Assembly: GCA_017499595.2 (NCBI GenBank)
Contig: CM039002.1
Span: forward strand, 806,001 to 870,000
From: Psilocybe cubensis
Taxonomy: Eukaryota
Length of the DNA stretch: 64,000 nucleotides
Direction: 5' to 3'
Shown here: positions 4,690 through 38,399 of the stretch, piece by piece
Layout of the letters: the number at the start of each line of letters is the position of its first letter
How positions within the stretch are numbered: position 1 is the first letter of the stretch
Position numbers and translations under genes: made by a program
Notes under the pieces: generated by a model
Databases searched by the model: none
The model's input: the letters and a program-made list of their open reading frames with translations, nothing else
Told to the model about the DNA's origin: nothing

Positions 4690-6960
4690 GTCCTTCTTCA
4701 AGCGGTATGCTTCCGACGTATAGACCTACGCAGAGGCTGATCTAAATGTTAGCAAATATTACCGACCATTAAAACATGATTATACCAAGTTCTCCTTTTC
4801 GCCCTCGTTAGGATCCGCAGCCCGTCTCTTACGTTTTTTTCCAGCCTTCTCGTCAACCGGTTTTGACAAATTGTCAGCCAAAACACCTCCATTGCGGGCA
4901 TTTGGACTGGCGCTGGGTTCCATAGAAGGGTTTGCAGGATCAGTTTGAGTTTCATTATTGACCGTTGTTGATGAGTTTTTGTTCGGGGTGTTATTGCTTT
5001 TTGAGGGGAGATTCTCGTCATCCGTTGAGATTTCAGTAATAGTAGAAAGCTCGCCATACAAATATGCAGACTGTACAATCATCACAAGTATAAGCAGAAG
5101 GAAAAAGCGGTTATAGTCAAAATTAAGAGCATACATTGAATGCTGGCTTGCAGGGAGTTTTTCGCTGGAGGCGTGGGGGTTTTGATGTAAGCTGATTTTC
5201 CGCCTGCGCCTGCATGGCTTGTAATGAATTACTGCCCCCCGCTGCTCGGAGCGGAGTTTGAGGAATAGGGCATGATGGCTGAGGAGTATGGCACCTTGGT
5301 TGTACTTGCTCTATTGGGGCCTAAAAGAAGAAAGAATGTTTAAGCAAAGGGCAATAAATGCAAAGATTAAAAACGATAGAATACTTCAAGATATTGAGGA
5401 TTTCGCGTTAGAAGTGCTGAAAAAACTTGATGTAGAAAGTTATCCACGGAATTCATCTCATCATTATCGTCAAGATGACCATGATGCAACTTCCCAAATG
5501 ATGCACTTTCCCTCCGAATTTTGTCGGCGTCGTCGTAGGCACAGTTCATATCTTCCATAATAAGCAGGTTGACGACGTGGGGGACCATAACCATGTCGAA
5601 AAATGATTCAGCGTTGAACGCCCGACTTTTACGCACAGATTCTGATAAATTTGTGAATTCATCCCAAAATCTATATGCATCCTCTGACGAATATGCTGCC
5701 AAAGCGTCCTCTTGTCCAGAGATCTGTTCCACCGGAGATTTGAGTCTGTACAAACCTATGTCAAACGTACTGTGGACGAGCAACTCCGTAACATAGTTTA
5801 AATCGCCGTCTACAACAAGCTGAGTCCAATAGCTTGCAATCAGACTACGCACAATAGGACCATAGCTAGCCAATATTTTAGTTACGTAGATAATATATTG
5901 GAAGATGCAATGAACGTACTATCCTGCAGATGCCACATTATAACAATACGGCGCTCTCTTGTCTAGTTGATTTAGGAATGATAATTTTGGGGTTTTGCAT
6001 TTAAGAAGCATTAAGCCCACAAATCTTCGCCATGGCAGAGATGTTTCGAATCTTGCACAATCCGTGCCGGAGCCTTCGAATATCATAGGGAAATTGTGCT
6101 TTACGTGAAGCTCAGCGATACGGTCGGCTACCTGGTCATAATCAATCTCGGCCACCGGCCAACCATTGCTGCGTGCAGCATCCAGCGAACTTGTCAGTCT
6201 CTCTTTGGATCTGAAATAAAGGTGGCTGCAGAGGAGCTGGCTTTTGAAGGACATATTCTGGGCTGCTTTGAGACGGTTGCGATTGTTGGCAAGGCGAAAC
6301 TGGGCACGCGCAACGGCATACTCTTTCATTATCATTTTCAAAGAAATATCTATCTCATCTTCAGGCGGGATTGTGTGATGGGGGTCGTCGGATTTAGAAC
6401 AACCTTGATGAGGGCATGATTTGATAGAAAGGTAATCCGAGCCATCCAATACGATCTAGACCGTTAAGAGGGTCAGCATATACCCAATAGAGACGGTCGA
6501 CACTGAAATAATCCTGTACCTCATTCTTCTGGAACGTAGCCTTCGGCTGGGACGTAGCCTTCTCCTGGGACGTAGCCTTTGGCTGGGACGTAGCCTTCGA
6601 CGTAGCGTTCTCCTGGGATGTAGCCTTGGCCTGGGATGTCGTGTTCTCCTCAGAAGTAGCGTCTTCGCTGGGCGGAATAGTCTAAAGGTACGGTGATCTT
6701 TCAGTCAAAAAACAGATAGAGTGTGTAGACTTACCGTTGATTGTGATACCTCGTTATTACCGTCATTTTTCTGAGCGCATATCACGAGCACAGGGGTTAG
6801 AAATGTAGAAAGATACCGGCACATTTTCGAATGCAAACCTTTGCTTTCTTTTTGGCTAGTTCCTCAGCCTCAAGACTAGCTGCTTCAGCCGAGCGTTTCT
6901 GCAAAATGTGAGATTAGATAAAGTAAACAATATGCCATCCAATTAAACAATACATACCAT
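4690..6960 (-). CDS. RTC4-like domain protein (transposon cargo); possibly the 3' half of one gene starting at 9176; outer coordinates approximate
   Basis: Removing the GT-AG intron 5866-5919 joins ORFs 5919..6449 and 5367..5873 into ASAGYYGPIV...FFDMVMVPHVVNLLIMEDMNCAYDDADKIRRESASFG. This matches the RTC4 domain pattern GYYG...LVP...LIMED...ES..YG. Confidence 0.65.
6529..6672. repeat. Degenerate 18-bp tandem repeat (CTGGGACGTAGCCTTCNN), encoding KATSQ[PE] on the minus strand
   Basis: About 7-8 imperfect units read directly from the sequence. Confidence 0.8.
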
Positions 6961-7197: not shown

Positions 7198-9176
7198 TTA
7201 GCGGTGTTTGTATACTGAAGGCATGTATTTCCAACCTTTGATTTCTGAGAATAAAGATGTACAATAAAATGAAGCGCAGCGGTTGGTAAGATATGAGCCA
7301 TACCTCTTTAGACGTACGCTCTTTTGAAGCGTTGGGGTCAGACTGTGTGGAGGCCTTGAGAGGCTCTGGGACCGGAGCTCGATTCTCTTTTTCAACTTCC
7401 TGAAACTCGGGGTTTAGGCATAAAAATTAAAACATCGGACTTGAAAAAAACACGCACATTGTGAGCTTCAGGCTTGGAAGAACCGGGTTTTCGTCCTGCT
7501 TTGGACTTTGCAGTTGACCAGTGGAACTTGAGAGTGGAAGCTTCTTCTTGCACAGGACTGGGCAAGGCGGTCAAACCAATTGCAGGAAAGGCAGTATTCA
7601 TATTCTAGATAGCGTTCTGTTAAATTTATAACCCACGGCATAATCATGATGCTTGGTACCTGTATTTCAGAGTTAGAACGAAGCGGCTCTTTGCCTTTAT
7701 TCTGGATTTTCCCATATAAACATTGAGCAAAAAATGCTAGGCAAAATTATAGAAAATAAAGAGCACCTTGACACCCTTGTTGGCCTTTGCAGTCACTTTT
7801 GAATTTAAGACTCTGTCCTCTTCATCGGATTGATCGCTCTCGACAAACTTAAGCTTGCGTTCCTTACGCGTTACAGATCCAGGGGTCTTCATAATCGATC
7901 GTGGAGGAGGCTTGGATTTGGGAGTTGATGAAGGGGAGACGTGACGCTCTTTTCGCCGACCGGTCTTTGTGCGAGAATCTTGAGGTTTAAGCGCGGGTTT
8001 TGATGCCTTTTCCTAAGCACGCTCCAAGGTCAATTACACTGGCATGCATTAAATTAACGCCCTCTTACACGAGTAGTATCTTCTTGATGGTGTTTCTTGG
8101 ACTTGCCTGCCAAATCCTCGTCGTCGGCGCATTCCTTGTCATTGGAGCATCCCTCGTCATCTTCCACGTTGTTGAAGACGTGATTGAAGTTTTCCTCGTC
8201 GTCCGAGCTGCAACTAATATTGTCCATCTCTACTTCAACGGGCCCAGAGTCATTAGCAGCCGTTCCATCGCCAGCATCATCTCTAAGGACCTCAAGACGA
8301 GCGCCCTGAATGGTTGCAAGCGCCTTAATATATTTCTTGATGGCTTCTCGGTCAGGTTTCTCCTGTGAGTTCTTTTCATCCTCTATATCTTTGGTGGCCG
8401 TTGCAGAAAAATGGCTAAGAAACTGTTTCAAAAATTCGTCGATGGGCCAGGCGTGACTATATTCACGAAAGACCTTGGCATTTTTGATAGCCTGTACTCA
8501 TTTGGGAGTCAGTAGGTTATACGTGCTTAAATAGTTTTTGAGAGAATCACATACCCGTTCTTTTGCACATCTTATTTTGTCTCTTGATTGACGTCTAAAC
8601 GGTTGGCGAACATCCAGGTACTGGAAGGCAGCTAGCTTGACTATCCGCTGAACACAACGGCATTTTGGTCATCATGGGCGCACGTAACATCTGCATAAGA
8701 AGCTCACATTGAGACGCAAGTAATGTTCTTTTGTCAATCCCATGGCAAGCTCGAGGTTAAAGCCGCCAAAGGCCTCACCGCGTCCTGCCTGGCCAACGGG
8801 ACGAGGTATTAGCCTATCATCCTCTTGGTCCTTAGCTACCTTGCATTAGAACATTTAATCCGTCATTTTAAAATCAACACGCACATAATTGATATTTCAG
8901 GTCTTTTACGACCTTGTCTTTCTCTGCTAACTCTTTTTCTTTCTGAGCCAATTGCTTAATCAGCTCTTCTCTTGAAAGTAGGCGGGGTTCCGAGGAATTT
9001 TCAGCCCCGGAGGAGTTTGCTTTCGAAGAGTTTTCAGGCCCGGTGGAAGGGTTGGGGTTTGCTTTCGAGGAGTTGTCAGGCCCCGCGGCGGAAGGGTCGG
9101 GGTTTGCTTTTAGGGGTTTTGCAGGCCTGGCGGCCCTGGACGGGTTTTGATTTGCTTTTGATGATTTCGGCGGCAT
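7198..9176 (-). CDS. Multi-exon hypothetical protein (coiled coil, small helical domain, acidic/basic low complexity); transposon cargo
   Basis: MPPKSSKAN start with SSKANP repeats. Spliced exons include LIPRPVGQAGRGEAFGGFNLELAMGL and VFREYSHAWPIDEFLKQFL. GT-AG introns; 3' end unclear. Confidence 0.55.
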
Positions 9177-9441
9177 GGAAGCTAGGAGGCGAAGGTAGTC
9201 GCTGTGTACTGTTCAGTTGAAGTTTCAGAGGTATATAATGCTGCGTTGGCGGAAAAACTCGGATTATGGGCACCTGCCCAGCTAAAAGATAATATACGCT
9301 AGTCCTTATTTGGTAGCATTATATGCGGGGGCGCGATGTTTGGGGTATACTCTCACGTGAGGTTGTTCTAAGCGTATACCTGGCGGTTTGCGTCGATTTC
9401 AACTTCCAAGTCCCAAAAGCCCAAGTCCTGACAAATACAGC

Positions 9442-10027
9442 ATGTCCTTTAACGTAGGTTATTTCTCCGGAGGCCATTATGTTACCTAAACAACCGATGG
9501 CATTGGGCTAAAATTCTATACAGAAACACAACTGCGTCAATTCTGCAGACGGTAAACGTCCCGATGCCCCAGTCGACGTACCACCGGCGAGCCCAGCGTG
9601 CATTTGTTGCGTTTTACTTCCGATGGAGGGCCTTTTGAACACAAATTCGGTCGATAGCAGCTGCTTGCAGCCAACCAATTCCTCAGATACTACGCCCGCG
9701 GAACCTGCTTACGGCCAGCTGCCCACCATCGAATGCGTCTGCGGCTGTATATCGCTCCAGCAAACAGCCCAGGCTGCGTCCAGCAAACAGCCGCATCAAG
9801 TTAAGAAAAAACCCGTCCAATCAATCCCGCTTTGGCGTGCCTTTGTGCAACAGGTACAACCTGCCGTCCCTCCGAAACAGCAAGCCGTAGCCTCCTGCCA
9901 GAATCCTTTGAAGGGCGGGGTAAAACGGCAGGATACCCTTATTGTTGAAGACTTGCCTAGAAAGGATATAGGAGGAGAGAAACCCCGTTCTTTAAAGCGT
10001 AGCAATACGGAAATCTTCATTTTATAG
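9442..10027 (+). CDS. Small hypothetical protein, probably spliced; transposon cargo
   Basis: ATG near 9442 with a GTAGGT...CAG intron, then ORF 9623..10027. No recognisable domain. Confidence 0.35.
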
Positions 10028-10099
10028 TACGATAAGGCTTTGGAGCAGAAATAATATATCTACATGCCTTTATGCTACCAATATTATTACCCGGCCGCT

Positions 10100-13000
10100 T
10101 CAAATTTGAATATCTGCTAAATTGTCAGAAGCACTCAGGTTGGAAAGCAATGTGGTCCTACCAGAAAGAGGTAAAGTCAGCTGGGAAGTAGCCCAGTTGT
10201 TGATGGTCACCAGCCGTTGTCGATCTTGTGAATGACTAGTCTTGCAAAGATGATGTTTAGACAGATAGGTCTTAGACCACGCTTTGATATGCTCCTGCTT
10301 GATAACAACATTCTTGCCGCGACAAAGAACATGTTGATTGATGTGAAGGCCGGCTTCCCATGCGCAATCCAAAATGAGAACTTCTTCTCCCAGGTAATCT
10401 ATCAACTCGCGAATAAACCAAGCAGTCCATTGGCAGTCAACAGGCGGAAAGTTAAACCAGTGCTCAAGGATGGTCGAACAAAATTGCAGAACGCAGGTCT
10501 TCGAAACGGTGTTATACTTAAAAGATCGAGGAGCGTAGATGTAAACGGATTCTCTTGGTTGAAACCCGCTGATAAAGGAAGCGGCGTCGAACTCCGCATT
10601 TGTTTGTACAGCCAAAACTTCTTCAACCCGTCGAACCAGTACACCCAAGCCATTTGAGATGTCGTCCTTGCTACGATAGGCTTGCTCGAGGACGCTGTCC
10701 AACCACTCCCATAATAGAACGTTGGAAAGGAGAAGCTGCTTTTGTTGGAATTGGAGATCAAGTTTCGAAATTGTCTTCTTCTGGCTGTATGAAGCGTATA
10801 ATTGGCAGGCTCTACGGATGTCACATGAAATCACAGGCTGACTGAGAATTTCGGATATCAAAGACACGTCAAGCCACTTTGACTGCCCTTGAGAGGGAGT
10901 GTTATCGATTGGGAGGTCTTTTAATGCAGCCAAAATTTTTGATATGCATTCTGGCCTCAAAGCGTTCAAAAATTTGCTTTGTCCTATACAAAAGGAGCGG
11001 TCAGAAACCTTGAATTCAGGCTGAAACAGCGGAAAAAATTGAACCGACCTAGGGATGTTACCGAACTGCTATTCCTGGTAATTCGTTCTTTAGGAGCAGC
11101 ATTTTTCTTGGAAGCTAATAGTTTTGTTTGCACAGCGGACATTTAGTAAGGTTTGAACTGACGAACCTTTCGATTTTGTGACCGTAGAATCTCTGTCTCC
11201 ATGTAGATTGTCTTCGAAGTTCAGATTGATATCTGGCCCGGAGTCGCTTTCGGGATCCTTGCGATGGCTCATTCGGCGAGCCTTGCTTGAGGTCAAGGTC
11301 TCTAAATTTTTGCTTGTAGATATTTGAACTCGACGGAGACAAATAATACCTTTACATACGTTGTGATGTATTTCTACGCTTTTTGATAGGTAAATCCATT
11401 TCAGAAACATCCCTAGTCCGTGCCCGTTTAACCGCTCCTGTGTATGTGTCAGTTATCAGGACGATGAAAGCATAATAAAAGTAAGCAACTAACCCTTGCG
11501 CGAACCTGTTTTGCTCTGTAATCCAATCACGGCTTCTTCGTCGTGGTCTCCAGCGGTTACACACAAAGGAATAGACTTTGCTGAGCTTTCCATGTGTTTT
11601 TCCCATTCTTGTACAGCCTCTTGGAGTTCAACGTTACCGTACGGTGCTTCGGACATAGAATCCGAGTTACAAAGCCTTGCAAGATTCTCTGACGAAAGAT
11701 CCTCGATGGATGAAACGCCTAATCCACTGAGGATGCCTGAGTAGTCGGTACCGATTTTGACATCATTGCCTCTCCATCCGGGACCCAGATCCCACTCATC
11801 CGCCGTAACTCTCTTATTATCGATAACCACAGAAACCATTTTCATGGCTAACGATTTATCAACGCGTGGAATCAATTCAGGAGGCAACTGACGGGCAAAA
11901 TGCGTGATTGCTTGGAGAAGAAGTCGACTGAAGTGATTGATATGAGCCTTAGGAGAAAGTAAAGAACCTCCGTCCGCGGTCCATGTAGCTTGCTTGCACA
12001 TTGGCGTCTTCGATAATTTGTGCGACCTAAATTTCATTTAAGATGCTGGGCATGATGTAACGTTTATGCTGACAGACGTACACTGGATTTCGCATTTCAA
12101 TACCGATGGCAAAAGTTGTATCATTAACTCCAGCCGCAAAAGCAACGCTATCAACCCCGTCAATTAGTTGACCAGGAGGGTAACCAATGAGAGTTAGGCG
12201 ATAGTAGATTTCGTTGGGTTGTTGGACGTAAATGGGTTGATGACCTCCATGGAAATGGAGACCAGAGAAAAATATGACGGAAAACTCCTCCATGAGATAC
12301 GCCAATCCGCAGCATAAAATGTAAAAGTTTTCAGGCGCCACGTCGGCCCTGTAGCGACTGAGAACGTGCATACAAGTTGGAGCACCTGAACTGTCGGCAG
12401 CGTCGACATGTGCCATCCCAAATTTTCCGAGCGAGGATTCCAAGGCAACATCTAAGCCAAAAATGAAGTTCAGATTGTATAATAGTTATGCGGGACACAC
12501 CATGCTGTGGAACTCCAGGAGCTACATTCAGTTGCCAAGACGGCCAGACGCAATTATCATCATATCCTACTGGCGCAAGCGAGGCCACCTCGGCTTGACG
12601 CTTCAGGCGCTGGAACAAATGCTTGGATGCTTTCTTAACTCCTTCAATGCCAGCTTTTGCCCCAGCCTGAGAATGCCATCAATTGACGTGTAAAACGTTC
12701 AGCGAACGACGTACTTGAAGTATATTGAACCGCATTTGCAAATCATAATCCCTGGCCTGAGTATACACTTTGCTCTGAACTCCTGGAGCGCTGAGGGACT
12801 TCTGTGCCTGTAGGGTTGATCCAAGGGTGTAGCATCGAGGACCGGACTTGATATTAACTGCGCGATCGCTTCGTTCAAACTGAATACCCCCCGAGTACTC
12901 TCCGTTTGTGTCCTTAACGGGTTTCTGCGAAGACATAAGTTCTTGAGGCCCCAAGATTTCTTCCTGAAGTCTGCGGCATTCTTGAAGGTCTATTGGATCT

Positions 13001-13750
13001 CGCTCATGTCTGACGGTTGTTTAATCACAAAATCAAACGCAAAAAAAAGATCCTTACTTGCTCAGTGTCCAGGATTTAAGTACATCGTCTCCAGGAAGCC
13101 CCGAACCGTATCTATCGCGTTCTAGATAAAAAATGTTGTCGCTTGGTTTTATGTATAGCATTCCTGAAAAATAGAAAAACTGTCATTGCCGGCGGGTGAA
13201 TTACAGAAAGGGATCAATCACCTTGCATCTGTCCTTCTGCTGCAGTGCTCGGTACCTTCAAATTAGCGGAGTAATGGAATCTACGCCTCATCGCGTCCAT
13301 TGACCAATCGGCAATGCCCAGGATGATCCGGGCCTTGGGGTCGTCGACTTTAGGGTGAGATTCAAGTTCGTATAGCACCGGAAGCCGAGGGTCGCGTCCA
13401 ACAAGTTCCGTCATAAGGCGAGATCCAGCAGGAGCGCCAACTTCGATGCGGCTGACGTGAGAAGACGGAGTCGCATCCAATTGTTCAATAGTCGGACTGG
13501 TCTGAGGCGTTAGACGACGTGTCGTAAGGCTGGATCGAGAAGGAGAAGTATAGCTGCCCGCAGCTCGAGATGCAACATTCGATGGCTCAAAAGTTGTAGT
13601 CGTACGAGGCGTTCGGGGTTTAGAAACAGGAGCCGGTGTGGGCACTGACGCTAATACTCTGCGACGCAATACTGGACGGAGTGACTTTGGTGGAGGAGTG
13701 GCCGGCGCCGATGCAGTTGGGCGACTTTTACTTCTGGTCTCAGCAGGCAT
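10100..13750 (-). CDS. TET/JBP-family 2-oxoglutarate/Fe(II) dioxygenase-like protein (transposon cargo)
   Basis: ATG at 13750 and spliced exons. Core reads WQLNVA...GMAHVDAADS (HxD)...SVIFFSGLHFHGG (distal His)...YYRLTLIGYP (2OG-binding Arg), the order and spacing of the TET/JBP double-stranded beta-helix. Joining of the C-terminal exons is inferred from GT-AG sites. Confidence 0.7.
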
Positions 13751-14796
13751 CTTGGGCTGTGGGGAACAGGAAGGAAGGAATGAAAACAACCCTTGGTAGA
13801 GGAGCATTACCAATACAAAAGCACGTACCAGGACTCTTTTTGGGAAATTGAAATACAGAAGTGTCCGTTCCGCTGGGCTCCTAAAGCAGCCGTCTCCGTA
13901 TCCTCCTGCATATCTCGGGCACGCACCGATACTCGGCTTCCTTCATACCGCGGTTTCAAATTTTGCAGACCGCAAAGTATAGCCTACGCCATGAGAAAGC
14001 ACCGCTTGGGGGATCGAGAATAAAGACAAGTCACAGCGCGTAGCGCCCAGCGGAAGTCATTCCGCGTCCCAGAGGATTGCTTTCGTTCAAGTCTCTACAC
14101 TTAACCGGCCAGTACGTACATATTAATACCGTATGTAGATTCATGCACCCTCCCTACTCACCGATACGAATACGTATGCGATATGCGGCTATCGATTGGC
14201 ACATAATGTGTGATATTCTTCAACTGGATTTAATTTATATTATTTTGGATTCGAGACTGCGCTGGCCTACGGAAAAACCGCCCTTGGAATGATGTACGAC
14301 CTGCTTATCTGGGCTGGTTAAGATCTCCGTCCCGGTACAGATATGCTGATGATGACATACCGGGGCCAATCCATTGCGCGGGCTCTTCGATGTCGTCATA
14401 CGGTATTTATTTGGGCGCAAATGCAGTCTTTATTCTGGCCTAATCGAGTCAGTAATGCAGAAACCTGAAGATGAAGGCGCGACTTCTGCTTGCGTGCGCA
14501 CCTTATCTCTACCATTAGGTCGCCAGGCAGACTGCCCATCCGACGCGTACACACGCACGCAGTCGTACATGTACATGTTGAATTCTATAGCTATACTAGC
14601 TGCGTACGTATATATTTACCCGGTATAATCAAGCCTTGTTAATACACGCTAGCTACAGAGATGTACGAGATATTATATTTCTGCCTACTCTAGTAACTCT
14701 ACTAACTAAACCTTCCCCTATCGCACCGCTCATGCTGGAGGAAGAGAGAAGAGGGAAACCGTGCGAAAATGTTGAATCGGCCTACTTGACGCACGG

Positions 14797-14839
14797 GATT
14801 TCGAAATCCATGCCGAACACCGGCATGGATTTCGAAATC
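14797..14839. repeat. Perfect hairpin 1 (19-bp stem, 5-nt loop)
   Basis: GATTTCGAAATCCATGCCG-AACAC-CGGCATGGATTTCGAAATC. Confidence 0.95.
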
Positions 14840-15058
14840 GCCGGGTACTTATTCCCGATTCTGGCGATGATTGACTCTTTTTCCTTCCCCACTACCACTC
14901 AAACGCGTACGTTGTAGCAGCGCGCGTCAGACACAACAATGTCGATCGTAGATTAGGTAGCTTAGAACGTACGCGTTTATATACATAAATTTATAGTAAT
15001 ATGAACGCTATTCGTTCCTAGATCTGAAAACATATACGCGCATTAAATCACCTCGATC

Positions 15059-17705
15059 ATGAAGAGGGTTTGTATGTTAGGATATCGGAACAGATCAAAC
15101 ACTCATAGATTTGTTTAAAGCAGCGTTTAAATGCCCCGAGAAATGTAGCTCGATTTCTGGATGTAGAAGCGGGAGTTGATGATGGCGAGGAGGTGGACTC
15201 CAACGAGGAAGAATCTGACCAGGAATTAGAAAGTACGCAAGCCCTATAATCTTGACTATTATCCTAGGCTGCGCATACCGCGAAAGCCACCCTTACAAAA
15301 CAATCCCAGATGACTTTCTCGATGAACAGGAAGTGGATGGGCTAGACGTCCGCCCTCGGTCGCTGGATGAATATGCTCAAACAAACGATGAAGCCCTAGA
15401 GGCGTTGCTGCTGCGATCCAAGGAAAGAAGCCGTGCAGAATCAAACCGACGAAAATCAAACACTGTGGATGCAGAAGCAGAAGATGATATATTTTCCGCC
15501 AGTTTTTTGCCTGCATTAACTGCAACGGATTATCCCTTGTGGAAGGTGACTTGCCGCGTAAGTTCTATCCTAAGCTTCCCGTCTACTTTTTCTGTTGACG
15601 TTTCCGCAATATAGGTTGGCAGGGAAGAATTGGCAGTTGCGTCTCTACTATTCAGTACTCAGGATAAGCACAAAATTCGATCTGTTTTTGCTATTGAGAA
15701 GATGAAGGGATGTATATTTTTGGAAGCATTGTGGAATCTTGATACCGTCGATCTGTTGAAGAAGACTCCGGGAGTTTTGATAACCAAACGAGGCGTACAA
15801 GAATCATTGGTTTCACCTGATGATTACCGAGAAATACTTCGGGGACAAGGCAAAATCTCTTCTGCAAAACCAGGATCCTGGGTCGCCATCGCGAAAGGTG
15901 CATATCGAGGAGACGTTGCGCTGGTGAAGGAGACAGAAGGGAGGCTTGTACGCCTGTTAATGCTTCCTCGGCTTCCCTTACCAGGTACAAACAAGGCCAA
16001 CAAAAGAAGGAAGACGGAACGTGCTGGAGATTCTGTTCTTTGGACGAAGACTCAGTGGTCGGAGTGGTTAGACTCTCAAGGGCGCTTTGATCAGGTTGTA
16101 GAACATACGGCACACTGCTGGCAAATAGGAAATATTCTTTTTGAGAATGGACTGATGCTTCAAGACTTTGGACAGGACTCCATCAATGTTGTCGTCGAGG
16201 AAATGCCCTTTCGCTACTTCCAGCTTTTCCAGCAATCCACACACAGCTCACTGGACTCCTCATACATGCTACGCCCCAGCGAGTGGAAATTTGAACCCGG
16301 AGAGCGCATTCTGGTTGCAGGTGATGAAGGATCGCAATCTAGAGAGGCCTCTGTAGCTGTTATCCATCCGTATTATCTAGAGGTTGCATACCAGACCCAC
16401 GATTCGCCTAAGATCACAGATACCGCGCTAGTGCCCTGGATTCGCGTGACAAAATTGTTTCAACTTGGCGATTACGTTTCTGTACAGAGCGGGGAAAATC
16501 AGGGAACCGAAGGTTGGCTAATTGCGAAAACGGACGCGTCGGTCGTGATAGGACTTATCGACTCGAGCATTCTGACAATTTCAAGCTTGCAGGTTTTGGA
16601 GACTATACAGGTAGGACTTCTTTCCTTTTCGCCTTGACTAGAATTCCTAATAAAATATTCGATATAAAGACGGTAGAAGCGCCTATAAACTGGGTACATC
16701 TATCAAAAGCTCCTTTTCAACACCTGATGAAAGAGGACAAGAAAAAAAAAGTCACAATCCCTTCCGAGGCTCGTCATATTTGGTGTGATAGAGAAGTTTT
16801 GATAACAAAACAGCATCATCCTATGAAAACTCGCCGAGGAAAAGTGGTGGATGTTTTGCCTTCCGCCGATTCTGCACACAATATGAGATTATTAGTAGAG
16901 CTGTTGGATTACCACGCAGCTTGTCCTTTTCAAAAAATCCTTTTAAATCATGGAGACGTTATTGACATAAGGTCGTGATTTCAATTCTTACATTATGTGA
17001 AGCAGATGTTAATAAAAGTTTAACAGGACTCGCTTGCCTCTGGGAAATCGACACGCCCTCGAGGGGATATCTACCCTAGTTCTTCATAACCATGACAGCT
17101 CTGTCGACACTCAGTCCGCTGAACGATCTAGTACGCCTGTTCCCACCAGCCCAATCGCCGATGGGCAATGGGATCCATCAGCACCGTTGCCCCACGATCC
17201 TCAATCCTCAATGTCACCGTCGGAATTATCGCAATCCTCCCATGTTCTATTCAGCGAAATGCTAGTGGGACAGAAGGTCGCCGTCTATATCACGGGGGGT
17301 TCATTCAAAGCTTCGAAGCGACACTACTTTGTAACTATCGCTCGAGACGAAAGAAACCATTTTACATTCCTTTTGCTGCGCCAAAAAAGGCCATCAATGA
17401 CTCTACAGCCGGACTGGGTTACGCCGAAGCATCCCAGTGGGACTCACACTAACAACCTGATGTTTGTCGTTGATGGAGAGAACCGACACCAATTTGTACG
17501 CCGGATCGCTCAGCGAGACTTAATAAACCAATCCCCCATCCTCTTAGTTAATCCAGTAATGAGGAGGCAAGGGCAATCCGATATATTGTGCGGGGTTCCT
17601 TTTGAGGTAGAATCTACTGCATTAGTCATTGTGGAGGAGACAGAATTGGAGAGAAGTGCAAGAGATACGCTGATGGCAGAATTGAGAAAACCATGGCGCT
17701 GCTGA
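15059..17705 (+). CDS. Divergent Spt5/NusG-family transcription elongation factor paralogue (acidic N-terminus, NGN, KOW motifs); transposon cargo
   Basis: Spliced MKR/QRLNAPRNVARFLDVEAGVDDGEE. NGN: FLP..DYPLWKVTCR/VGREELAVASLL...IRSVFAIEKMKGCIFLEA...LVSPDDY. KOW: PGSWVAIAKGAYRGDVALV..LLMLPRL and FQLGDYVSVQSGENQGTEGWL. No clear C-terminal repeat array. Confidence 0.8.
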
Positions 17706-18059
17706 TATATCGATATGTATCTCACTCTAATGTAAATCGGCCGGACCCAAGTCGCGGAAACCAATATATTTGTTTATCAAGGCGTTTGCATTATATTACT
17801 GGCTTCTGAAACTAAAATGCATATCGCGACGTAAGTATCTTCCGGTTACGTTTGCTTCCTTGGATCAAGTGGCGTGGGCAATCTTTATGTTCACGCCAGC
17901 GAGCGCGTTGAGTTTTTTTCAAGCCTAGTTTCTTTCGCATCAGCTCTTTCCCCCTTGCCCACCTTTTGTTCGTACAATCCTCAGTCCTCGATTTAGGCCT
18001 TTGTCAATCATTGCAAGGTAGCTTATGTGCTTATCAAAGAGCTAGCATAACAATCTGAA

Positions 18060-18831
18060 ATGCGGGTTCGTTCTAGCTGCACTGCTCGTAGCAAACGGAT
18101 GTGTCGAACTCTCAATGTCTGCCACCGAGGGGACAAAAACACCGTGATTGCCCTGCTGGATCTCTGTTGTGACACAAAAAACTACCCCGGTATGCCCTTC
18201 ATCTTTCTCAGAAAGTTTACGCTGCTCATTGCCTATCCTCGCACGTACGCAGAGGGAGTTGAGGCGCTACAATGCTACCTACAAAGTTGCTTTGAAAACA
18301 ACATCGCGCTTTCACATGATGATGCGCAACTCTTCGCAGACTTCTTGCAAGACTACGTCCGATGTGCGCGCCGCTCTCTGGTATCAATTTCCAGACCTAG
18401 GACCATCCCACCGCCTGGGCCATCAGCTTTAGCACGCCTGCTCCTCATCGATTTCAAAAAGGATGACCTGATAGTTTCTTGCATCAAGGCCCTTGAGGTT
18501 TCTTTTGACCTCTCAAGGCTTGCACGACGTCGCACCCGGGCATATATTTTGGTCATGGTTCTGTAAGTCAAGGGCTGTCTATCAGCGCATTCTTGCTGAC
18601 TCTGAGCACCATTTAGAATTTCAACATTCCTTCTGGCTGTATCAGAGGCGGTTGAGAGGTCTGAAGGTCAGCACTACATCCTGCAATCTTTCAATTTTCT
18701 CCAACGAGCAACCCGTGAAGCTCGGCAAGCCGGTATCTCGCGTACAGACGCAATCTATGCAGTCATTCATTCTCAAGTTGGATCGCTTTTCGGCTCCCTG
18801 TAGCCGTTTTGTTGGCCGCCTTGAAGAATAG
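18060..18831 (+). CDS. Hypothetical protein(s), transposon cargo
   Basis: Overlapping ORFs 18060..18566 and 18493..18831 with no recognisable motif; gene model uncertain. Confidence 0.3.
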
Positions 18832-19420
18832 GTTTTGTCTTTAGTGTCAGTTGGTTATTGGTTTTCTCGGTCTTCATTTCTACCTACTATGTTTGCCTCA
18901 ACTGTCTTTCCTTAGGACAAGTTGTAGTAATTGAACTCTATTGTACGTGCTCCTGCATTCTATGCACAAAATATATTTGGGGCTCTTCGTTTGCTTGATC
19001 CATTGGCAAAGCGTTACTTACCAACGCCTCTCCCTCTCTAAAGCCTGTAGATCTGATCTGCTGCAAGTTAACTATGTTGAACCAAGCTGCTCAATGATGC
19101 CTTAACGTTAACTATGCATGATACGTACTTGTAGTGGGACAGCCGGTACCCCAGTATGTTGATGACCCTGTTCCGCTGACCAGTCATTACTAAAATATAT
19201 ATCACAATCGCCGTTAACTGCTCTTTTGTAATACCGGTTGCAAAGCCCTGAAACAGCTTTATAACCAAGCGCCTGTTGCTGCTTGCTGGTCCCATCTTTA
19301 TTACTTCGGCGCTGCTAATTCTCTGGCCTCCATCCAACTTAATCTCCTCAACAATTGGATCGATTTCTCTGATTCTAGTTGACTTGCTAATTAGCTAACA
19401 CAGCCCGATCCATAGTTGCT

Positions 19421-19747
19421 ATGGATGTGGCGCCTCAACATCGCGACCAACCTCGCGTCGATGTCCCAACTCCTGAGACAAACCCCTTTCCCGTCCTCTC
19501 AAATCTTAATGATACCCACTTCCAACATCAATTACTCTATCTGGCAATGACCTGCGATACGGTTTTCGGTCTCACCAGGGCGGCAAATGCGCTCCACAAC
19601 CTCTTGTTGGAGAACTGCGGGATTCTCGAAGAACAGATTATGACTTGCGGTCGATCCATGGTTGAAGAAGCGACTGAATTCGCGGACAACGACATTGTGA
19701 GGGCCTTTTCTCGCTGTGTGTTGGGCGTCATGAAGCACATCTTCTGA
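19421..19747 (+). CDS. Small hypothetical protein, transposon cargo
   Basis: 108-aa ATG-initiated ORF with globular-looking composition. Confidence 0.35.
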   Translation: MDVAPQHRDQPRVDVPTPETNPFPVLSNLNDTHFQHQLLYLAMTCDTVFGLTRAANALHNLLLENCGILEEQIMTCGRSMVEEATEFADNDIVRAFSRCVLGVMKHIF

Positions 19748-20007
19748 CCACTCCTTAGTTTGAACTTGCCACTATTGTTGCTGCTATCCCCTCAGTCAAC
19801 TTTCAACTGAACATGGATCTAATTCAAGATGCAGCACGCGCCGTCTATGTCGCAGCAGGTCTACGCCGAGACCTGGATGTACGTTTGAATTCCCATTCCT
19901 TTGATTCAAATTAACCGTAAGCTAACATTATGGGTCTAGGAAGCTTTGAAAATATGTAACTTGGCCTTGAAGAAGCAAGAGTGAATTATTTTTCCAAAGA
20001 TTATTTA

Positions 20008-23000
20008 TTATAATAAAGCGTCGTCGTCATCAGGTTCCTCAGGGTCACCTCCGTGAACAAATATAGTCCGCGAATACTCGTCACTTCTATCTACAATTGC
20101 CCACCCCTTCTGTTCTCGATATATTCTTCCAATGGCATTTGTGATTGACTGCAAATCAAGCGCTATTGTTGCCCGCTTGTCTGATTCCCTGAAGACCGTG
20201 AGGGTTGTTGCTGCATTTTTCCCGTTTGTTCTGTAGGGAGTCACAACAGCCAGCAGCCGAAGGGACCGCTTCCACAAGCCCCAGAAATCATCTCCAGGGA
20301 CGTTGAATTCAAGAATTAATTCCAAACGTCCGTAACAGATCTCTGCATTCTCATCGATAACATTATTATTCCGGTCCTTTGTCACGCCAAGTAGTTCATA
20401 CTGGCAGTAAATGTCATGCCCGCAGTTAATATATAATAATCAGTCACACTTAGGTATTTTCAGGGGGTAAATTGTCAAAAACGCACCTTCACCCAGGATC
20501 TGCTTCTTTTATTTTCAATTGCATGCTCTGAATGTACTTCTATCGTGTCCCCACCCATAATCCTGACTTTTCCCCAACTTACTAACGTCTGAGGAAGCCT
20601 TACTTGGATTGAGCGAGAGCTCTTCTTGATGATTGGGCTAATGTATTCCGCAATTCTTTGTCTAATGTCATGGCTTGGCTTATATGCTTTGTTTTGTGGC
20701 GCCATAAGGATAGAAAGTGGATCTAGTATTATATCAATTTGTTTAGGAAGTTGGTAAAAATTCTTATGGTCAACTCACACTGTGCATATAGGCGTTCACG
20801 TTCTTTCACTGAATCTCGCGTACTTCGAGAAGGAACCCCGCGCGCCTTTAAGTCATACAAGTTGTCAATCATAGAGAGATAAGCCCTGTTTATGACAGCG
20901 TTATCCATATTTGCCCATGGACTGACGTGGGATCGAAGTTTGTTTCTCATAAAACCGCAAAACCGCTCCATCCAAAACGTCCACGTAGCCCAGACAGGTC
21001 CACAATAGCGTATATTATCGCATAAGTGTAGCATGCCGTGAAGAGTCAATACACACATCGGCAGCCGGTCGTACTTATACTGGTAGTAAAGCCTGCAGAC
21101 GACATTGAAGACTGATTTCATGGAAAAACTGACTCATGCTTACTTTTCGTAATCCTGGACCCAGCTTGCAATGCCTATTTCGAGCGCGCTAAGATCCTCA
21201 CGCTTCATGGTCAAAGCTGTTAACTTTTTCATAATGTTAACCAGTCGAATGAAGTGCTGATAATAGATTTCTTTCTTGAATCTGTCCTTCAGAAGAAACG
21301 GAGCAAGGTATAAAAACCAAAATGACCATCCCTCTGCATTGAGATACTTCTTGTTGTTGTAGGGGTTTCCGAGTGCCCGGACAAAATACGAGGGTATCCA
21401 CTGGACGGCATATTCGGACTCTTTGGCAATTTCTTCCCATATATGCCCTGGGATTATGAAATCATACTCCTCCTCGTCATCAAAGCCCTTGAATGTTCCC
21501 AACCACAGATCTACAAGATTTTTGACTACATTTAGGAACAAGAGATGCATGTAGTCCCAGGGCATCCCTCGAGCGTAGTCCAGTGATTGCACACGCTGAA
21601 GTGCAGGCATTCCCTTAATTCCCGTTTGCATAGCTATCTCTCCTCGCCGCTGCGCAGTTGGCATTTGAAGCATTTTCTCTGTGGTAATTTGCCAGTCGAC
21701 ATGCTTTCGCAAAGGTAAATTCAAAGGATCATAAATTTTCTCACGACGGGTTGCCAACAGTGGCACATAATAGATCCCATTTCTTTTCCCGGCAGGCTTG
21801 TAGAGTGCTCCGTGGATTCGACATGATCTACATGGGCACAAGCCGTTGTGCCCTTTGATCTTGAGAAATTTTTCCATTGCGACAATATCTCCGGTTGTAA
21901 AAATGCAATAGGCATGGAGAAGAAAGATGCTGCGAGTAAGGCAATTGAAGGTTTTGATGCCTCTGGCTAGCGTTGCCAATTCCTCGTCAAAAGGATAAAG
22001 GAACGATGTCAGATTTTTGGGGGCATTTGGCCCTGGAACAACCCCTAGACAAACGACACGTGCTGAATGAGTCCTAACGTCTGATGGTAAGCTTAAGATT
22101 TGCACAAGTATGGGCATCGCGGATGGTCCACTTGGCCTATATTTGTAGAGGAGAAAGCTGTCCATACATAACGACAGTGCAATATCGGTAGGAGCGGAGA
22201 AGTATTTATGTGGAAGCTGTTGTCCGTCAACGACAACGTAAGTTCTACGCAATTTCTTGTAATGTCCGCAATCAAACACATCCTCAATATCGTCCGAATC
22301 TTCCTTGTTATCGTACACGTTCTGTCTATAAGACAAAAGGTTCGCCGTTTCTGGATTTGCAAAAAGTGCCTGGAGTTGCGGTGATAGTGGGATATAACGG
22401 AAAATTCGACGAGATCTGCCTCGCGAATCGAAGCGGGGTTCCTGGCAATAAAAACATAGATTGTCGTCCTTGAATTCTCCCGTGTAAGCCTTGCACGAAT
22501 TAATGCAACAATCGATTATTTGCGGCACAAGGTCTGACAACTTAGCCACACGATTAACCGTGGCTTTCCAAGAACTTAATGGCATGCGATGGACAAAATA
22601 ATAGCGCATATCATCATAGACGGCGCGGGAAAAATTTGACATGATTCGAAACCTGAAAGCCTGTATATGGTCTACGTCCTTTAATGTGAGACTGTGGCGA
22701 CCTGTAAAGCTTGCAGCTAAGTCAAACACATACTGAAAATCAAAGAATGTCAATAACTTACTATGCTCCATGACATCTATAAGGTCGGAGTTGCTGTCAC
22801 GATCACTCCAATCTGAAGTGTCCTCTACGTTCAGTTCCTCCTCAAGCGCGAACCTTGCGGCTATTTCGTCTTCCTCCACATATTCAAAGCTAAAGTCGTC
22901 TGGGTGGTCGGAACGTTGGCCGGGGCCCGGGATTGAACCATCACTGCCCGTGGTAGAATTTGAAATTGTGTCGAGGAAATCATCTCTATGGAGCAAATTG

Positions 23001-23715
23001 TCTGCACTGGCAGGGCTCTCAAGGCCGTTGTCACTTCTAGCAGGTGTTTCCGCGTTCAACCGTCGGATGGGAATGTGAGGGCTTGTATCTTTGGCCTCAT
23101 CCTCATCCGTCTGATGAAGTAAACCATCACTATAATGCAAATTTTCAAGACTGATAGGGGTATCAAGGCCGTCATCCCTTCTTGGAGGAATATCCACGTC
23201 CAACCGCAGGATTGAAGGCTGAGGGCTGGTATCATTTTGGGGTTCATCCTCATCCATTCGATGAAGGTTGCAGTTAACACGGAATTTCCCTTCCTGAAGA
23301 CGGCTTTTCTCATCCTCATCCATCTCACTAAGCTCTTCATTAGCATCGTATTCAGCTATGGATATATCTGAACGCCCCCCCGGCAAATCTTGTTCTATTA
23401 ATAGGTCTGAGTCGTTTATATCTGGATATCTGTGAAGTACTACAGATAAGCGTTCCATGCTTCATGCGATTTCGATGATACAACATACCCTGGACCGTAA
23501 CTTGAGCGATCCAAAGCGTCGGCAGAATAATCGGTTTCTTCCTCCGTGTCGGGGGGTGGTGTCCTTCCAACCCTCCTGTAATGTTTAGCCCGAGTTTGAC
23601 GCGAAATGGGCTTACCCATACTACGGCAGTCGAGTGCGCAACCACAAAGCACCTTTCCAGTTCTCTTTCGTCGGCGAGTCTGACGACGCTTGCGATGCCG
23701 GGTAGTGCGACGCAT
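20008..23715 (-). CDS. CACTA/EnSpm Tnp2-family (Transposase_21-like) DDE transposase
   Basis: N-terminal CGCALDC...SRQTRAKH; IDCCINSCKAY...CFYCQEPRF...FRYIPLSPQLQALF. Putative catalytic motifs LCMDSF, TGDIVA, WDYMHLLF and WTFWMERFCG. Also CPCRSC and LHGMLHL..IRYCGPVW. ORFs are joinable by GT-AG introns with no obvious disabling stop. Confidence 0.9.
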
Positions 23716-23974
23716 CGATAACTAACTTTACATACGTATATATACCAATTAAGTTGAAAGACAAGGCAGTACTTATGCATGAATGAAACCTACCGGCCGG
23801 TGCACGAATGATATGCAAGTGTTAGGAATATTGTTCTTATTGTATTTCTCAATCCTATCTATATACTAGTATCGTGTACTATTGAAGCTCACTAATTGTC
23901 GTTCGTTCGATTACAGTGTAAGAGGGGAAAGGAAGAAACCCTTCAAACACGTGCAAAGCAGGCGTAAGTACTCT

Positions 23975-24021
23975 GCGATTCCGAAATCCATGCCGACTTT
24001 CGGCATGGATTTCGGAATCGC
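23975..24021. repeat. Perfect hairpin 2 (22-bp stem, 3-nt loop), paralogue of hairpin 1
   Basis: GCGATTCCGAAATCCATGCCGA-CTT-TCGGCATGGATTTCGGAATCGC. Confidence 0.95.
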
Positions 24022-26182
24022 GTATGGTAAGTTTACGGCTGCGAAACCGAGGCACGTTTTCGCAACTTGTTCCTTCCCTTGATGGTACAAACACAACAGT
24101 CAAGCAGAAAATCGCCGTATGTACGCAGTTTTGTACATAGTTTCGGGAGAACAGTAAGCTGATACGACCTCTTGACTGACAAATTAAGGTATTCATCGTG
24201 CTTCCCGGCCCAGCGTGAACAACACCCCTCGTCTCGCTTCCCATACCCACCCTCACCTTCGTCGCAGCATCCCCATGATTCATAATATAGCACATTAAAG
24301 TCTGTACACTCAGAGACTTGAGGCACAATGACACAATCGGCAGTGAGAGGGGCGGAGGATGCGGGGCTTGGTCGTCTTCCTGAGCGACATCCCGCTGATA
24401 GAGACAACTCACCATCATCGATCAGCACCTCCCTTGGGCGTGGCAAAACAGAGAAAAAGATGTCTCCAGCATTATCGTAGTTATTAATTAAGCATACTCA
24501 TAGCTACATACACATAAAATTTTGCAAGCTGCTTGTCTTGAGGTCTCGTCTTTTTGAATGGTCTGCACCTCCAAGTTGCTGCTTGTCTTTGTCAATAGAA
24601 CAGTAATTATGGTCTGGGGTCAACATCATGAACGACCGCTACGGCTTTCTCACTGAAGAGCTCAGTCTGACGCAGAGGTCAGTCGTCCTCACTCTGCTTT
24701 CTAACTCCTCATTAACCTTCATATATATAAATGTAGACTTTAACGACGAAAACAAAATCCTCTTCTGACAGTTTATTATCTATGAGCAGCGTGGGGCGAG
24801 TTCCGGGAGTCATTAGAATGCTGTGATCGCATACAGGAAATCACATTGCAGCAGCCTCCGAGTTGCGCAGGTTTCAGGAGCGGCCGATGGACCGGCGGAC
24901 GTTCCTACATTGGGACCACCATCCGCCTACCTACCTGAAAAGCTGGCTTGCCAACGTTGACGTTAGGTCCCAGATCGGGCATGTTTGCGAGCTGAAGGAA
25001 AAAGGTAAGCTTTTCCTTCTAATTTTCTTCTTTTTGTATACCTCAATCTAATTCATTGTGGCGCATGTGGTTTCTATTGGAGGAGCGTATACTACCAGCC
25101 TAAATTTAACAAGAATTACAAAGGCTACCCGCAGACTGTCTACCGAGATAGACCGAAATCCCGCTTTTTGGAGTTCGATCAACCTTCTCGACTTCTCAAC
25201 CAGTTCCAGACAACTTCGGTCATACTACTCATCTTAGACGGCATCTGTGCCCTGCAGTACATCGAGGAGCAGCCGAAACCTTCATCACCCGCCGTTCATC
25301 AGACACTAGATTGCTCGTACAGCATTCCGGTCGCCTTGAATCCTAACGACGAGCAGCAAAACGCTGATTGTCCTGGGATATTATGAGCAGCAAGTGTTTA
25401 CGGGAGAGTATCGCCATTCTTAAAAACGCATCGATTCTGTGAGTGTGTTCTATCACTGTCAGTGTCATCTTTGATTTTAACATCCAAAGGCTCAGGCACT
25501 ACCGATAAGATTGTTGAGACTCGGTAATGACGCGCTCAAACGACAAAGTTTACTTTCAATGCGCGTGCACCTAATTCCCAGCCTATTGCACGGTTTCTTG
25601 GTCCTAAAAGTGCATTACTATCCACTGTAAGCGTTCAAATTCCTGGATTTAGAAGCCAATATATATATCTAGGATAGTAAAGTGGAACAATGAATTAATT
25701 AAAGCGTTCTGCTGCTCGTCCCAGCCGTTCAACACGACGACAAGCGGCTCATTGATCCGCTCGTCATCCTCCTCAACCCCCTCTACACCTGCCGCGCCGC
25801 CTTCCACCCAAATGACGAGCAGTCGGGGTGGCATGAAAACAAAGGAACGCGCATTCTGACGCGCCTAGCGTGATCGTGCAGGACGAGAATCAGGACGAGA
25901 ATTAACACGTGAAGTGGTGACAAAGCAACAATATCGGCATTACGTTCGAAGCGGGACGACACTCATGCAGGTGAAACCGCGTCTCATAGCAGGTGCAGCT
26001 GCATACCCAAGGCTGGCCGAAAAGAAATCGAACCGAGCCGCGAGACAATGTTGAGCCGGATGGGAACTTGAACAAGGAAAAAGCAAGGGGTACCTCCGGT
26101 ATAGTCCTTCAATGTGACTCTCTCCAACCATCCTCTCACTCCTTTCCGAAGTTCTGCATAGACGCCGAAGCACCGTAGCAAT

Positions 26183-36250: not shown

Positions 36251-36584
36251 GCATTATTCAATTACAAGGCTGACCATGGTCTTCCGCCAATCAGCTGAAG
36301 CCTTAAAAGTATCTGGAACTAAATGGCGACAGTGTAATAATACATACCCAACACATCATAGCAGCACATTCCAATGTGATCACGTCAAACCTTGTGTCTT
36401 ATGATGAACTGGGAATTGAGCGACATGGGCGGGCCGCAATCGCCATATACTTGCTCTTACTCACCCAATGTATTGTGCTGCGCACAGCCTAAGCACCAAA
36501 CATGATCCATGATTGCTTGCTGGTATATTTAGGAGAGTCCTTGATGCTTCTTTCTTCACTCCTTGATACTCAATCGTGCTACCA

Positions 36585-37926
36585 ATGGATTCGAGCACAC
36601 CTCCTAATACTCTGTCATATTTCCCCTCAATTGGCGCGTTTATCGATAACGGAGCTCTTCAGATTGTGGAAGTTCTTACGACTTGGGTCGGATATTCTGG
36701 TGTCGTCTATCGGGCAGTCGATACCCGCACCCGGCATCCTTCGGGTCAAAAGAAATATTTTTCTGTGAGATGTCTTTGTATCTCTGTCTTCCCGAACACG
36801 GCAAAACGTCAAAAGGAGATATACTTACGAGGAGTTATGTTGCACCGTCTTGCATCAGCGCATCCAGGAATCATCGATATTCATCATGTGTTCGAGCAGG
36901 ATAACCGTTTATACATTATCACAAACCATGCGCCAAACGGCAATCTGGCCACTCAGATCTTTGAAAAAGGTCGCTACATTGGAAGAAATGCCGATATAAA
37001 GAGTGTTTATCTCCAGTTACTGGAAGCAGTCGATTATTGTCACTCCATCAGAATTGCACATATGCATTTAACGCCACGAAACATAGTTTGCTTTCAGGAT
37101 GGTCTTCGCGTTTCGATTACCAACTTTGGCCTTGCAACCACTGAGCGGTTTAGTGAAAATTTTCGCCAGGGAAGCGTTCGTTATATGAGCCCCGGTACGC
37201 CCTCTATCCCAAATTTTCCAAAGTTTGATTCAATTTTTACCTTTGCTTTTTAGAGTGTCATGGCGCGCAGTTTACCCATACCGGAAAATATTCTCCAAAG
37301 TTCAACGACATTTGGTCGCTTGGGATTATTATGTTGAACATGATAACTGGACGCAATTGCTGGATGGTAGCCACACCGGATGACCCCTTCTTCCGAGATT
37401 ATTCGAACAGTCCTTTTGATATCTTGCCAGTAATATATCCCATTTCTTCTGAAACGAACAACATCCTCTCTCGCATGCTCCATCCCAGCTGGTACCAGCG
37501 AAGCACACTACATGAGGTCCGCATGGCCGTTGAAAACGTTACCAACTTCTACTCGGAGGATGCCTTTTTTTCAGGAGGCATGGCATGCTTCCGTCGTCAG
37601 GAAATTAAAGAGAGTCCCCTCACGAGAGCAATGCGTGAACAACACATACTCTCAGAGGCTCCCAGGTAGTATTACTTATATTACCTACTTGGGTATTATT
37701 ACTGATCCAAATTCGCTTTAGCAGAGACAGATCTGAGGATGAAATTGATTTAAATGTTGAAGATATGGATTATTTTCGAGAAAATTACTTGAATGATTCC
37801 ACACTTTCACTCAGTACGGCATATTCCAACCCTCATTCTAGCATTGAAACATGCGACTACGGGCAATATTATACGAGACATGCAATCTCTGATGATTCGC
37901 TAGTACTTGAAGCTGGTAAATGCTAG
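36585..37926 (+). CDS. Ran1/Pat1-like Ser/Thr protein kinase fold, probable pseudokinase
   Basis: YSGVVYRAVD, FSVRCL, LASAHPGIIDIH, VYLQLLEAVDYCHS, HMHLTPRNI, ITNFGLATTE, GSVRYMSPE, NDIWSLGIIMLNMITGRNCW. Confidence 0.8.
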
Positions 37927-38185: not shown

Positions 38186-38399
38186 CACTGCTGGCGCTGA
38201 TACATATTTGATAGAAAAATATGTATTGGTAATTATGTTTCCTGTTGGTTTTTGACGTATTTTTCTCGTATATAGAGTCCGGGGTTACCGAATTAGGGAA
38301 GCCCGAAGCCTATATTCCAATAAAATACGTCAAAAAAATGTAGGAAACATAATTACTAGGTCTTATTTTCTTTGAAAATATGTATGAGCGCCAGCGGTG
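38186..38399. mobile_element. 214-bp MITE-like foldback element with CACTG/CACCG termini
   Basis: CACTGCTGGCGCTGATACATATTT...GTAATTATGTTTCCT...TTTTTGACGTATTTT (from 38186) is an imperfect ~80-bp inverted repeat of the segment ending ...ATATGTATGAGCGCCAGCGGTG (38399). No TSD seen. Confidence 0.7.

Follow-up and report, generated by a model that had tools for sequence, protein, structure and literature searches.

The window analyzed here, a stretch of 64,000 nucleotides (nt) of Psilocybe cubensis DNA (GenBank assembly GCA_017499595.2, contig CM039002.1, positions 806,001 to 870,000 of the forward strand), carries at 15059-17705 a gene, here called Spt5L, which is followed by a second open reading frame (ORF), ORF-X, and by a transposase gene. 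To our knowledge, no transcription factor other than Spt5/NusG is shared by all life; eukaryotic Spt5 is normally a single essential gene, and the paralogues known to us (plant KTF1, ciliate Spt5m) serve the host against transposons. It is well supported that Spt5L is a true, strongly diverged Spt5 paralogue, and equally that, within the Agaricales, it belongs as an intact copy to a large family of Spt5 paralogues that is multi-copy and evolves fast. The gene is organized as follows (aa, amino acids; CTR, C-terminal repeat region):

15059-17705, forward strand: Spt5L gene, six exons, 781 aa, single terminal stop
15059-15067, 15121-15232, 15310-15557, 15615-16610, 16670-16971 and 17027-17705, forward strand: the six exons
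15615-16610, forward strand: exon 4 (332 aa), with most of the NGN domain, KOW1-linker1, KOW2 and KOW3
17027-17705, forward strand: exon 6, with a disordered start of about 70 aa that holds a CTR-like remnant, then two beta-barrels in tandem (KOW6-7-like) and a helix at the end

All five introns (53, 77, 57, 59 and 55 nt) are bounded by GT..AG, the exon borders are those of the aligned P. cubensis gene models, and the window holds one copy of the gene only. A preliminary description of this DNA had reported a diverged Spt5 paralogue at this position, and that observation is confirmed: the limits it gave coincide exactly with the start and stop codons of Spt5L, the N-terminal signature RFLDVEAGVDD lies in exon 2, and the open, splice-joinable and strongly diverged frames form a 781-aa ORF which is assigned to Spt5 alike by comparisons of sequence, of profile and of fold. 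The interpretation that it attached to the gene is, as a whole, partly supported.

Pfam recognizes the protein at the borderline, with NGN (PF03439) at 22.9 bits against a cut-off of 22.4; Spt5_N (13.9 bits, cut-off 24.2) and KOW5 (12.5 bits) stay under their cut-offs, and exons 5 and 6 gave no Pfam match. When exon 4 was compared with PDB sequences by phmmer, 21 of the 22 matches were Spt5 or NusG, the exception being a tail fibre (E = 0.33). The best match was human SPT5 (E = 2.9e-9), with query residues 18-327 collinear with residues 209-513, and plant KTF1 was also present (8hyj_W, E = 6.8e-6). Moreover, the AlphaFold model of exon 4, built from a 124-row alignment, reached a predicted local distance difference test score (pLDDT) of 86.5 and a predicted template modelling score (pTM) of 0.72. 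A Foldseek search of the PDB with this model returned Spt5 chains or domains in all of the top 32 rows (best E = 2e-15), with template modelling (TM) scores of 0.78 to the KOW2-3 crystal structure 4ytl and 0.71 to the KOW1-linker1 structure 4ytk. The model of exon 6 had a pLDDT of 77, with residues 1-70 under 57; its best Foldseek match was human KOW6-KOW7 (5ohq, E = 1.5e-3, TM 0.67), none being at or below 1e-3.

We then focused on which parts of Spt5 have been kept. Full-length family members, mostly of 690-800 aa, were compared profile to profile with 25 canonical Agaricomycete Spt5 proteins; coordinates are those of P0012 for the family and of Flammula alnicola P0227 for canonical Spt5.

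Family 8-429 against canonical 87-532, E = 1.2e-50: N-terminus to KOW3
Family 3-49 against canonical 83-129, E = 1.9e-13: acidic N-terminus
Family 468-536 against canonical 700-755, E = 3e-4: KOW5, at a probability of only 39%
Family 632-767 against canonical 987-1134, E = 7e-6: C-terminal domain, at a probability of 84%

Canonical residues 533-699 are skipped in this alignment. Pfam maps the N-terminal half of P0227 as Spt5_N 93-183, NGN 189-274, KOW1 284-412, KOW2 443-493 and KOW 496-523, and its C-terminal half as KOWx 553-600, KOW4 608-661, KOW5 709-753 and CTD 794-839. The profile alignment and this map together indicate that the family keeps all parts of Spt5 except KOWx-KOW4 and the CTR array. 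In the nine family members scanned with Pfam, NGN was always above its cut-off (24.7-38.2 bits), and neither KOWx-KOW4 (PF23037, PF23291) nor CTD (PF12815) was found in any of them at E<=0.01. Spt5L reads, in order, as an acidic N-terminus with a putative Spt5_N motif, NGN, KOW1-linker, KOW2, KOW3, a probable KOW5, the disordered linker of about 70 aa and a C-terminal tandem KOW. The likeness to canonical fungal Spt5 (P0227, P0221) lies in this shared order, from the putative acidic N-terminal motif to the C-terminal domain, and in the retention of one CTR-type unit in the family; the difference lies in the missing KOWx-KOW4 and CTR array (about 780 against about 1100 aa), in copy number, in the standing of the family as a separate, long-stemmed clade and in changes at 29 of 54 canonical-invariant columns. 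A pre-Dikarya origin, in which the C-terminal tandem KOW would predate the loss of KOW6-7 in Dikarya, was considered and rejected, as the family C-terminus aligns to the canonical Agaricomycete C-terminal domain; the matches of hidden Markov models (HMMs) considered for it were individually insignificant (best E = 0.12).

The preliminary description had also noted that only a trace of the repeat region remains, and both halves of this statement hold. The array is gone in Spt5L except for a single degenerate unit, SPIADGQWDPSAP, inside the disordered linker. Nine family members carry 0-2 units of the TPAWDPSSRTP type, usually one and sometimes two, as compared to three RTPAWN..SRTPNP units in Flammula Spt5 and ten TPAWN units in Schizosaccharomyces pombe Spt5 (P0221). 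The family unit resembles the Agaricales type RTPAWNxxSRTPNP, and this basidiomycete-like unit hints at a capture from an Agaricomycete host. As for an AGO-hook, that is, a region of WG/GW repeats, the 781 aa of Spt5L contain one GW and no WG.

The size of the family was estimated by searching exon 4 with phmmer against 1.84 billion cluster representatives (50% identity clusters), which gave 383 matches at E<=1e-3, 130 at E<=1e-10 and 14 at E<=1e-30. Thirty representatives were looked up for names. Named members come from Psilocybe cubensis, Panaeolus cyanescens, Panaeolus papilionaceus, Pholiota conissans, Pholiota molesta, Flammula alnicola, Collybiopsis confluens and Amanita muscaria, spanning six genera of Agaricales, and five of the representatives were of canonical type (Rhizamoeba, Coelomomyces and three JGI records). 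The proteins nearest to Spt5L come from P. cubensis, with identities of 81%, 71% and 65%, a spread that arises because the gene models differ. Three subfamilies are present in P. cubensis, one of which comprises five intact NCBI models on five contigs (98.8-99.9% identical, 928-938 aa). The near-identical P. cubensis models, together with the read depth reported below, establish Spt5L as a multi-copy gene. For Panaeolus cyanescens, six members were looked up, and every one is on a contig of at most 19 kb. The preliminary description had treated it as a paralogue and not as the genome's only Spt5, and this stands for two family-bearing species in which a full-length canonical Spt5 coexists with the family, F. 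alnicola (P0227, 1140 aa) and C. confluens (P0269, 1473 aa), the evidence being from these two genomes. A metagenome scan with exon 4 yielded 135 pattern matches, none of them a relative. As a separate observation, five JGI/IMG or unnamed proteins of 317-333 aa (P0139, P0141, P0142, P0144 and P0147) have NGN-KOW1-KOW2-KOW3 of the canonical type and nothing further; each may be a piece of canonical Spt5 that corresponds to one exon, from eukaryotes in metagenomes, or else these proteins may represent a short form.

A quick tree of 58 rows (27 family, 31 canonical) over 295 columns of the NGN-KOW3 region set the family apart from the single-copy host Spt5: all 27 family rows fall together on one side of a branch that has 100% support in the Shimodaira-Hasegawa-like approximate likelihood ratio test (SH-aLRT) and a stem of 1.78 changes per column, and the 23 rows of canonical Dikarya form a clade with 96% support, the family lying outside. 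End branches measure 0.35-2.3 in the family as compared to 0.03-0.17 in canonical Agaricales, several deep family lineages occur within one species, and no species-tree pattern is seen. The deep placement of the family is unreliable because this is a quick tree with long branches, and a grouping with the Agaricomycete Spt5 clade was not rejected in the approximately unbiased (AU) test (difference in log likelihood 5.58, p = 0.39). The support for the "ancient capture" of the preliminary description is thus weaker than it had put it.

The alignment of 124 sequences has a single invariant column and 15 nearly invariant ones. Columns at least 90% conserved in canonical Spt5 number 54; counting as kept those with the same residue in at least 70% of the family rows, 25 are kept and 29 changed, the kept ones being distributed as 6/16 in NGN, 13/25 in KOW1-linker, 6/11 in KOW2 and 0/2 in KOW3. 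Ten columns are conserved (>=85%) in the family only, including a P-x-E-W motif and three tryptophans, and the conserved Glu of the "YxEA" strand is kept in 81% of the family rows. Across the six genera, identity is 20-35%, yet full length and one domain order are maintained. This pattern of invariant columns, and reading frames that stay open despite deep divergence, speak for selection acting on the protein, and the family-specific invariant residues across the 124 sequences likewise argue for the retained function that had been suggested earlier.

The surroundings of Spt5L comprise the following features:

18051-19981, forward strand: ORF-X, multi-exon, downstream of Spt5L, encoding a helical protein
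20008-23721, reverse strand: Tnp2 (Transposase_21) transposase gene, convergent with ORF-X, its outer exons inferred from open frames
21140-23461, reverse strand: main exon of the transposase (773 aa), PF02992 at 32.2 bits against a cut-off of 28.6
14784-14860, no strand assigned: left repeat copy, 77 nt, with a perfect 19+19-nt palindrome at 14797-14839, lying 208 bp upstream of the ATG of Spt5L
23956-24032, no strand assigned: right repeat copy, with a perfect 22+22-nt palindrome at 23975-24021, about 250 bp upstream of the likely transposase start
10100-13942, reverse strand: TET/JBP-like gene, divergent from Spt5L, 1.1 kb upstream of it and outside the repeat pair

Neither Pfam nor the Atlas gave a usable family for ORF-X. 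Residues 720-958 of the P. cubensis model P0002 map to 18402-19981 at 71-95% identity, and the ORF-X part is fused to an Spt5-like part in two P. cubensis models on two contigs (P0002 and P0172), which shows that the adjacency recurs; ORF-X adjoins an Spt5-like gene in all three loci seen. The transposase lies 2.3 kb downstream of Spt5L and has 14 relatives (best identity 48%), 11 of which carry PF02992. The two repeat copies are 79% alike, bracket Spt5L, ORF-X and the transposase, and are the sole notable repeat around this block. Within the 64 kb, their 19-nt half-site has four occurrences, every one of them in the pair (expected 0.03). The copies differ at one base per arm, and since the two changes are mutually complementary, the palindrome is preserved in both; binding of a dimer and formation of a hairpin are two roles that it could have. 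Each palindrome sits upstream of an inward-pointing gene, Spt5L on one side and the transposase on the other. Moreover, the read depth was determined from DNA reads of two runs (X11, X12) at >=90% identity, the figures being summed depths in X11:

25443-26000, flank: about 36 (1x)
Spt5L: 77-112 (2-3x)
ORF-X: 89-128 (2.5-3.5x)
Transposase: 126-164 (about 4x)
9000-13535, region of the TET-like gene: 118-175 (about 4x)
13536-14669, left of the Spt5L block: 53-78 (1.5-2x)
23742-24875, around the right repeat: 76-81 (about 2x)

A depth of 2-4x relative to the flank indicates that the region is repeated, in 2-4 copies that vary in content. The TET/JBP-like gene is itself repeated, at about 4x. The divergent neighbour that the preliminary description had named is there, and its assignment draws on language-model features of the Atlas (top clusters scoring 0.97, with Tet_JBP in 14%, 16% and 54% of their members) and on HVD and HFHGG motifs in the ORF at 12027-12485, which follow an HxD...H pattern; on the other hand, it has no match among Pfam or PDB sequences. 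As Pfam does not recognize the sequence, the gene at 10100-13942 may belong to one of the very divergent TET/JBP types.

Taken together, these observations give moderate support to the view that Spt5L is a passenger or accessory gene of a repeated unit, of about 9 kb or larger, that includes ORF-X and a transposase of the Tnp2/CACTA superfamily. How such a gene could serve the unit is suggested by its architecture. In complexes of RNA polymerase II (Pol II) with DSIF, NGN and KOW1 lie over the clamp and the upstream DNA, KOWx-4 and KOW5 lie at the RNA exit, and the phosphorylated CTR provides a docking site for other factors. The NGN-KOW1 module of Spt5L would seat the protein on the Pol II clamp, where it would replace host Spt5; lacking the phospho-platform of the CTR and the KOWx-4 part of the RNA clamp, it would be unable to recruit the usual CTR-dependent partners, and in this way the elongation state of polymerases would be altered by the element. 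The most likely benefit would be expression of the element's own genes, or a blunting of co-transcriptional silencing, and Spt5L would then be to eukaryotes what the specialised NusG paralogues of mobile DNA are to bacteria. Overall, that Spt5L is at once a family member, an accessory gene of a transposon unit and a modifier of Pol II elongation on behalf of that element seems to us somewhat better than an even chance.

Several results weigh against this explanation. The term "transposon-borne" in the preliminary description finds a basis in the transposase 2.3 kb away, the repeat pair, the read depth and the synteny, but not in element termini or target-site duplications: a search of the window for terminal inverted repeats of the CACTA/CATCA/TGT- or Plavaka type with 2-3 bp target-site duplications returned only chance-level pairs. 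The depth remains at about 2x for some 850 bp past the right repeat and at 1.5-2x past the left one, and because raised depth continues beyond them the palindromic repeats are probably internal to the repeated unit. Since the depth is 2-3x over Spt5L but about 4x over the transposase, not every copy has Spt5L together with the transposase. The linkage to a transposase is seen in this window only, the P. cubensis models showing just Spt5L and ORF-X, and among 80 metagenome loci of a distant Tnp2 family (505,785 bases) neither tblastn nor HMM searches found Spt5L at any, the window being detected as a control; an association of Spt5L with Tnp2, if real, would accordingly be lineage-specific. Finally, ten of the 16 canonical-invariant NGN columns are altered in the family, so that binding to Spt4 or Pol II in the canonical manner is not assured. 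The 80 loci (L001-L080), from soil and plant-associated samples, represent an abundant Tnp2-type transposase family that is 50-82% identical to P0187.

A bolder version of this explanation goes further along the same line: the transposon-encoded paralogue would replace host Spt5 on the polymerases that transcribe the element, maybe by way of the palindromic sites, and loss of the CTR would uncouple transcription of the element from co-transcriptional silencing by the host, resulting in an RfaH-like counter-silencing to which the TET-like dioxygenase might contribute. We consider this possible but unlikely.

It is less probable still that Spt5L belongs to a host family for genome defence, in the manner of plant KTF1/SPT5L and ciliate Spt5m, which was duplicated and came to lie in repeat-rich DNA by chance or recruitment. 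Specialised anti-transposon Spt5 paralogues do exist, according to the accessible text of two reports (PMC5416832, PMC8934623), KTF1 is among the PDB matches of exon 4, and genuine transposon ends were not found in the window. Against such a role stand the near-identical intact copies on five contigs, the presence of several deep lineages per genome with no species-tree pattern and with branches 5-10-fold longer than those of the host gene, the short contigs of all the P. cyanescens members looked up, the absence of an AGO-hook, and the repeat pair that brackets the Spt5L block together with a transposase.

We assign a similarly low probability to the possibility that Spt5L is a captured host gene (Pack-type or CACTA capture) with no role for the element, kept by recent amplification only. 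CACTA-superfamily elements capture host genes, and such an origin would be in agreement with the Agaricales-like repeat unit of the family, with its degenerate state in Spt5L and with an AU test that leaves the Agaricomycete Spt5 clade unrejected. A role-less passenger is difficult to reconcile, however, with a family that has drifted to 20-35% identity over six genera and yet keeps its full length, its domain order and its invariant residues, family-specific ones included, or with the frames of Spt5L, which stay open over five introns even though its protein differs by 19% from the nearest relative. A dominant-negative competitor that sits on the Pol II clamp throughout the genome, weakening processes that depend on host Spt5 instead of working at the element, would be expected to have just this architecture, with NGN-KOW1 kept and CTR and KOWx-4 lost, but genome-wide poisoning of an essential factor should be costly, and we regard this as quite improbable.

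Returning to the view of Spt5L as an accessory gene of a mobile unit, its relation to known systems can be outlined. It shares with KTF1/SPT5L (RDM3) and ciliate Spt5m the condition of a lineage-specific Spt5 paralogue that stands beside a canonical copy and is tied to transposon biology, and the NCBI pipeline name of two P. cubensis family members is indeed "RNA-directed DNA methylation 3". It differs from KTF1/SPT5L in lacking the WG/GW repeats of the AGO-hook and in being a dispersed family adjoining a transposase instead of a single host gene. Bacterial NusG paralogues on mobile or acquired DNA, such as RfaH, ActX and TraB, consist of NGN and a single KOW, are recruited by DNA signals and oppose Rho. 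The likeness to these is a functional analogy only, in that a mobile or foreign unit would bring its own paralogue of a universal elongation factor, whereas Spt5L is a multi-KOW eukaryotic form. DNA transposons of Agaricomycetes that carry TET genes, namely cut-and-paste elements of the CACTA/EnSpm/Plavaka and KDZ groups, are described in the accessible text of Kojima 2025 (PMC12730594); like them, the unit at this locus would be a fungal cut-and-paste element with an accessory gene directed at chromatin or the epigenome, and here a TET-like gene lies 1.1 kb upstream. The main text of that paper, as accessible, contains none of the terms Spt5, KOW, NusG or "elongation factor". A 2026 survey of the elongation factor (PMC13289920) mentions neither transposons nor Agaricomycetes in its accessible text, with "paralog" occurring in the reference list only, and a full-text literature search returned no report of a transposon-linked Spt5 in fungi. 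The family and its genomic context thus appear to be undescribed, although its sequences are already public, as database annotations name them SPT5 or RDM3. Such labels ("transcription elongation factor SPT5", "RDM3") on family copies inflate gene counts and can mislead orthology work. If the family does travel with a transposase, the usual picture would be reversed, with a mobile element owning an elongation factor; it would also offer a natural experiment on Spt5, separating dispensable parts (KOWx-4 and the CTR) from those that are kept (NGN, KOW1-3 and the C-terminal tandem).

Other features of the window lie apart from this block. A long GAG/GAA (Glu-rich) coding repeat occupies 27001-27367, inside overlapping open frames at 26243-27799 for which no family was found, and a near-palindrome of 214 nt lies at 38186-38399, its 107-nt arms being 75% complementary with no spacer between them. 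Ordinary host genes, by their look, are represented by an ORF with an RTC4-like domain (5367-5918, reverse strand), a protein-kinase exon (36567-37253, forward strand) and two adjacent F-box-like genes (58571-59905 and 60175-61776, forward strand).

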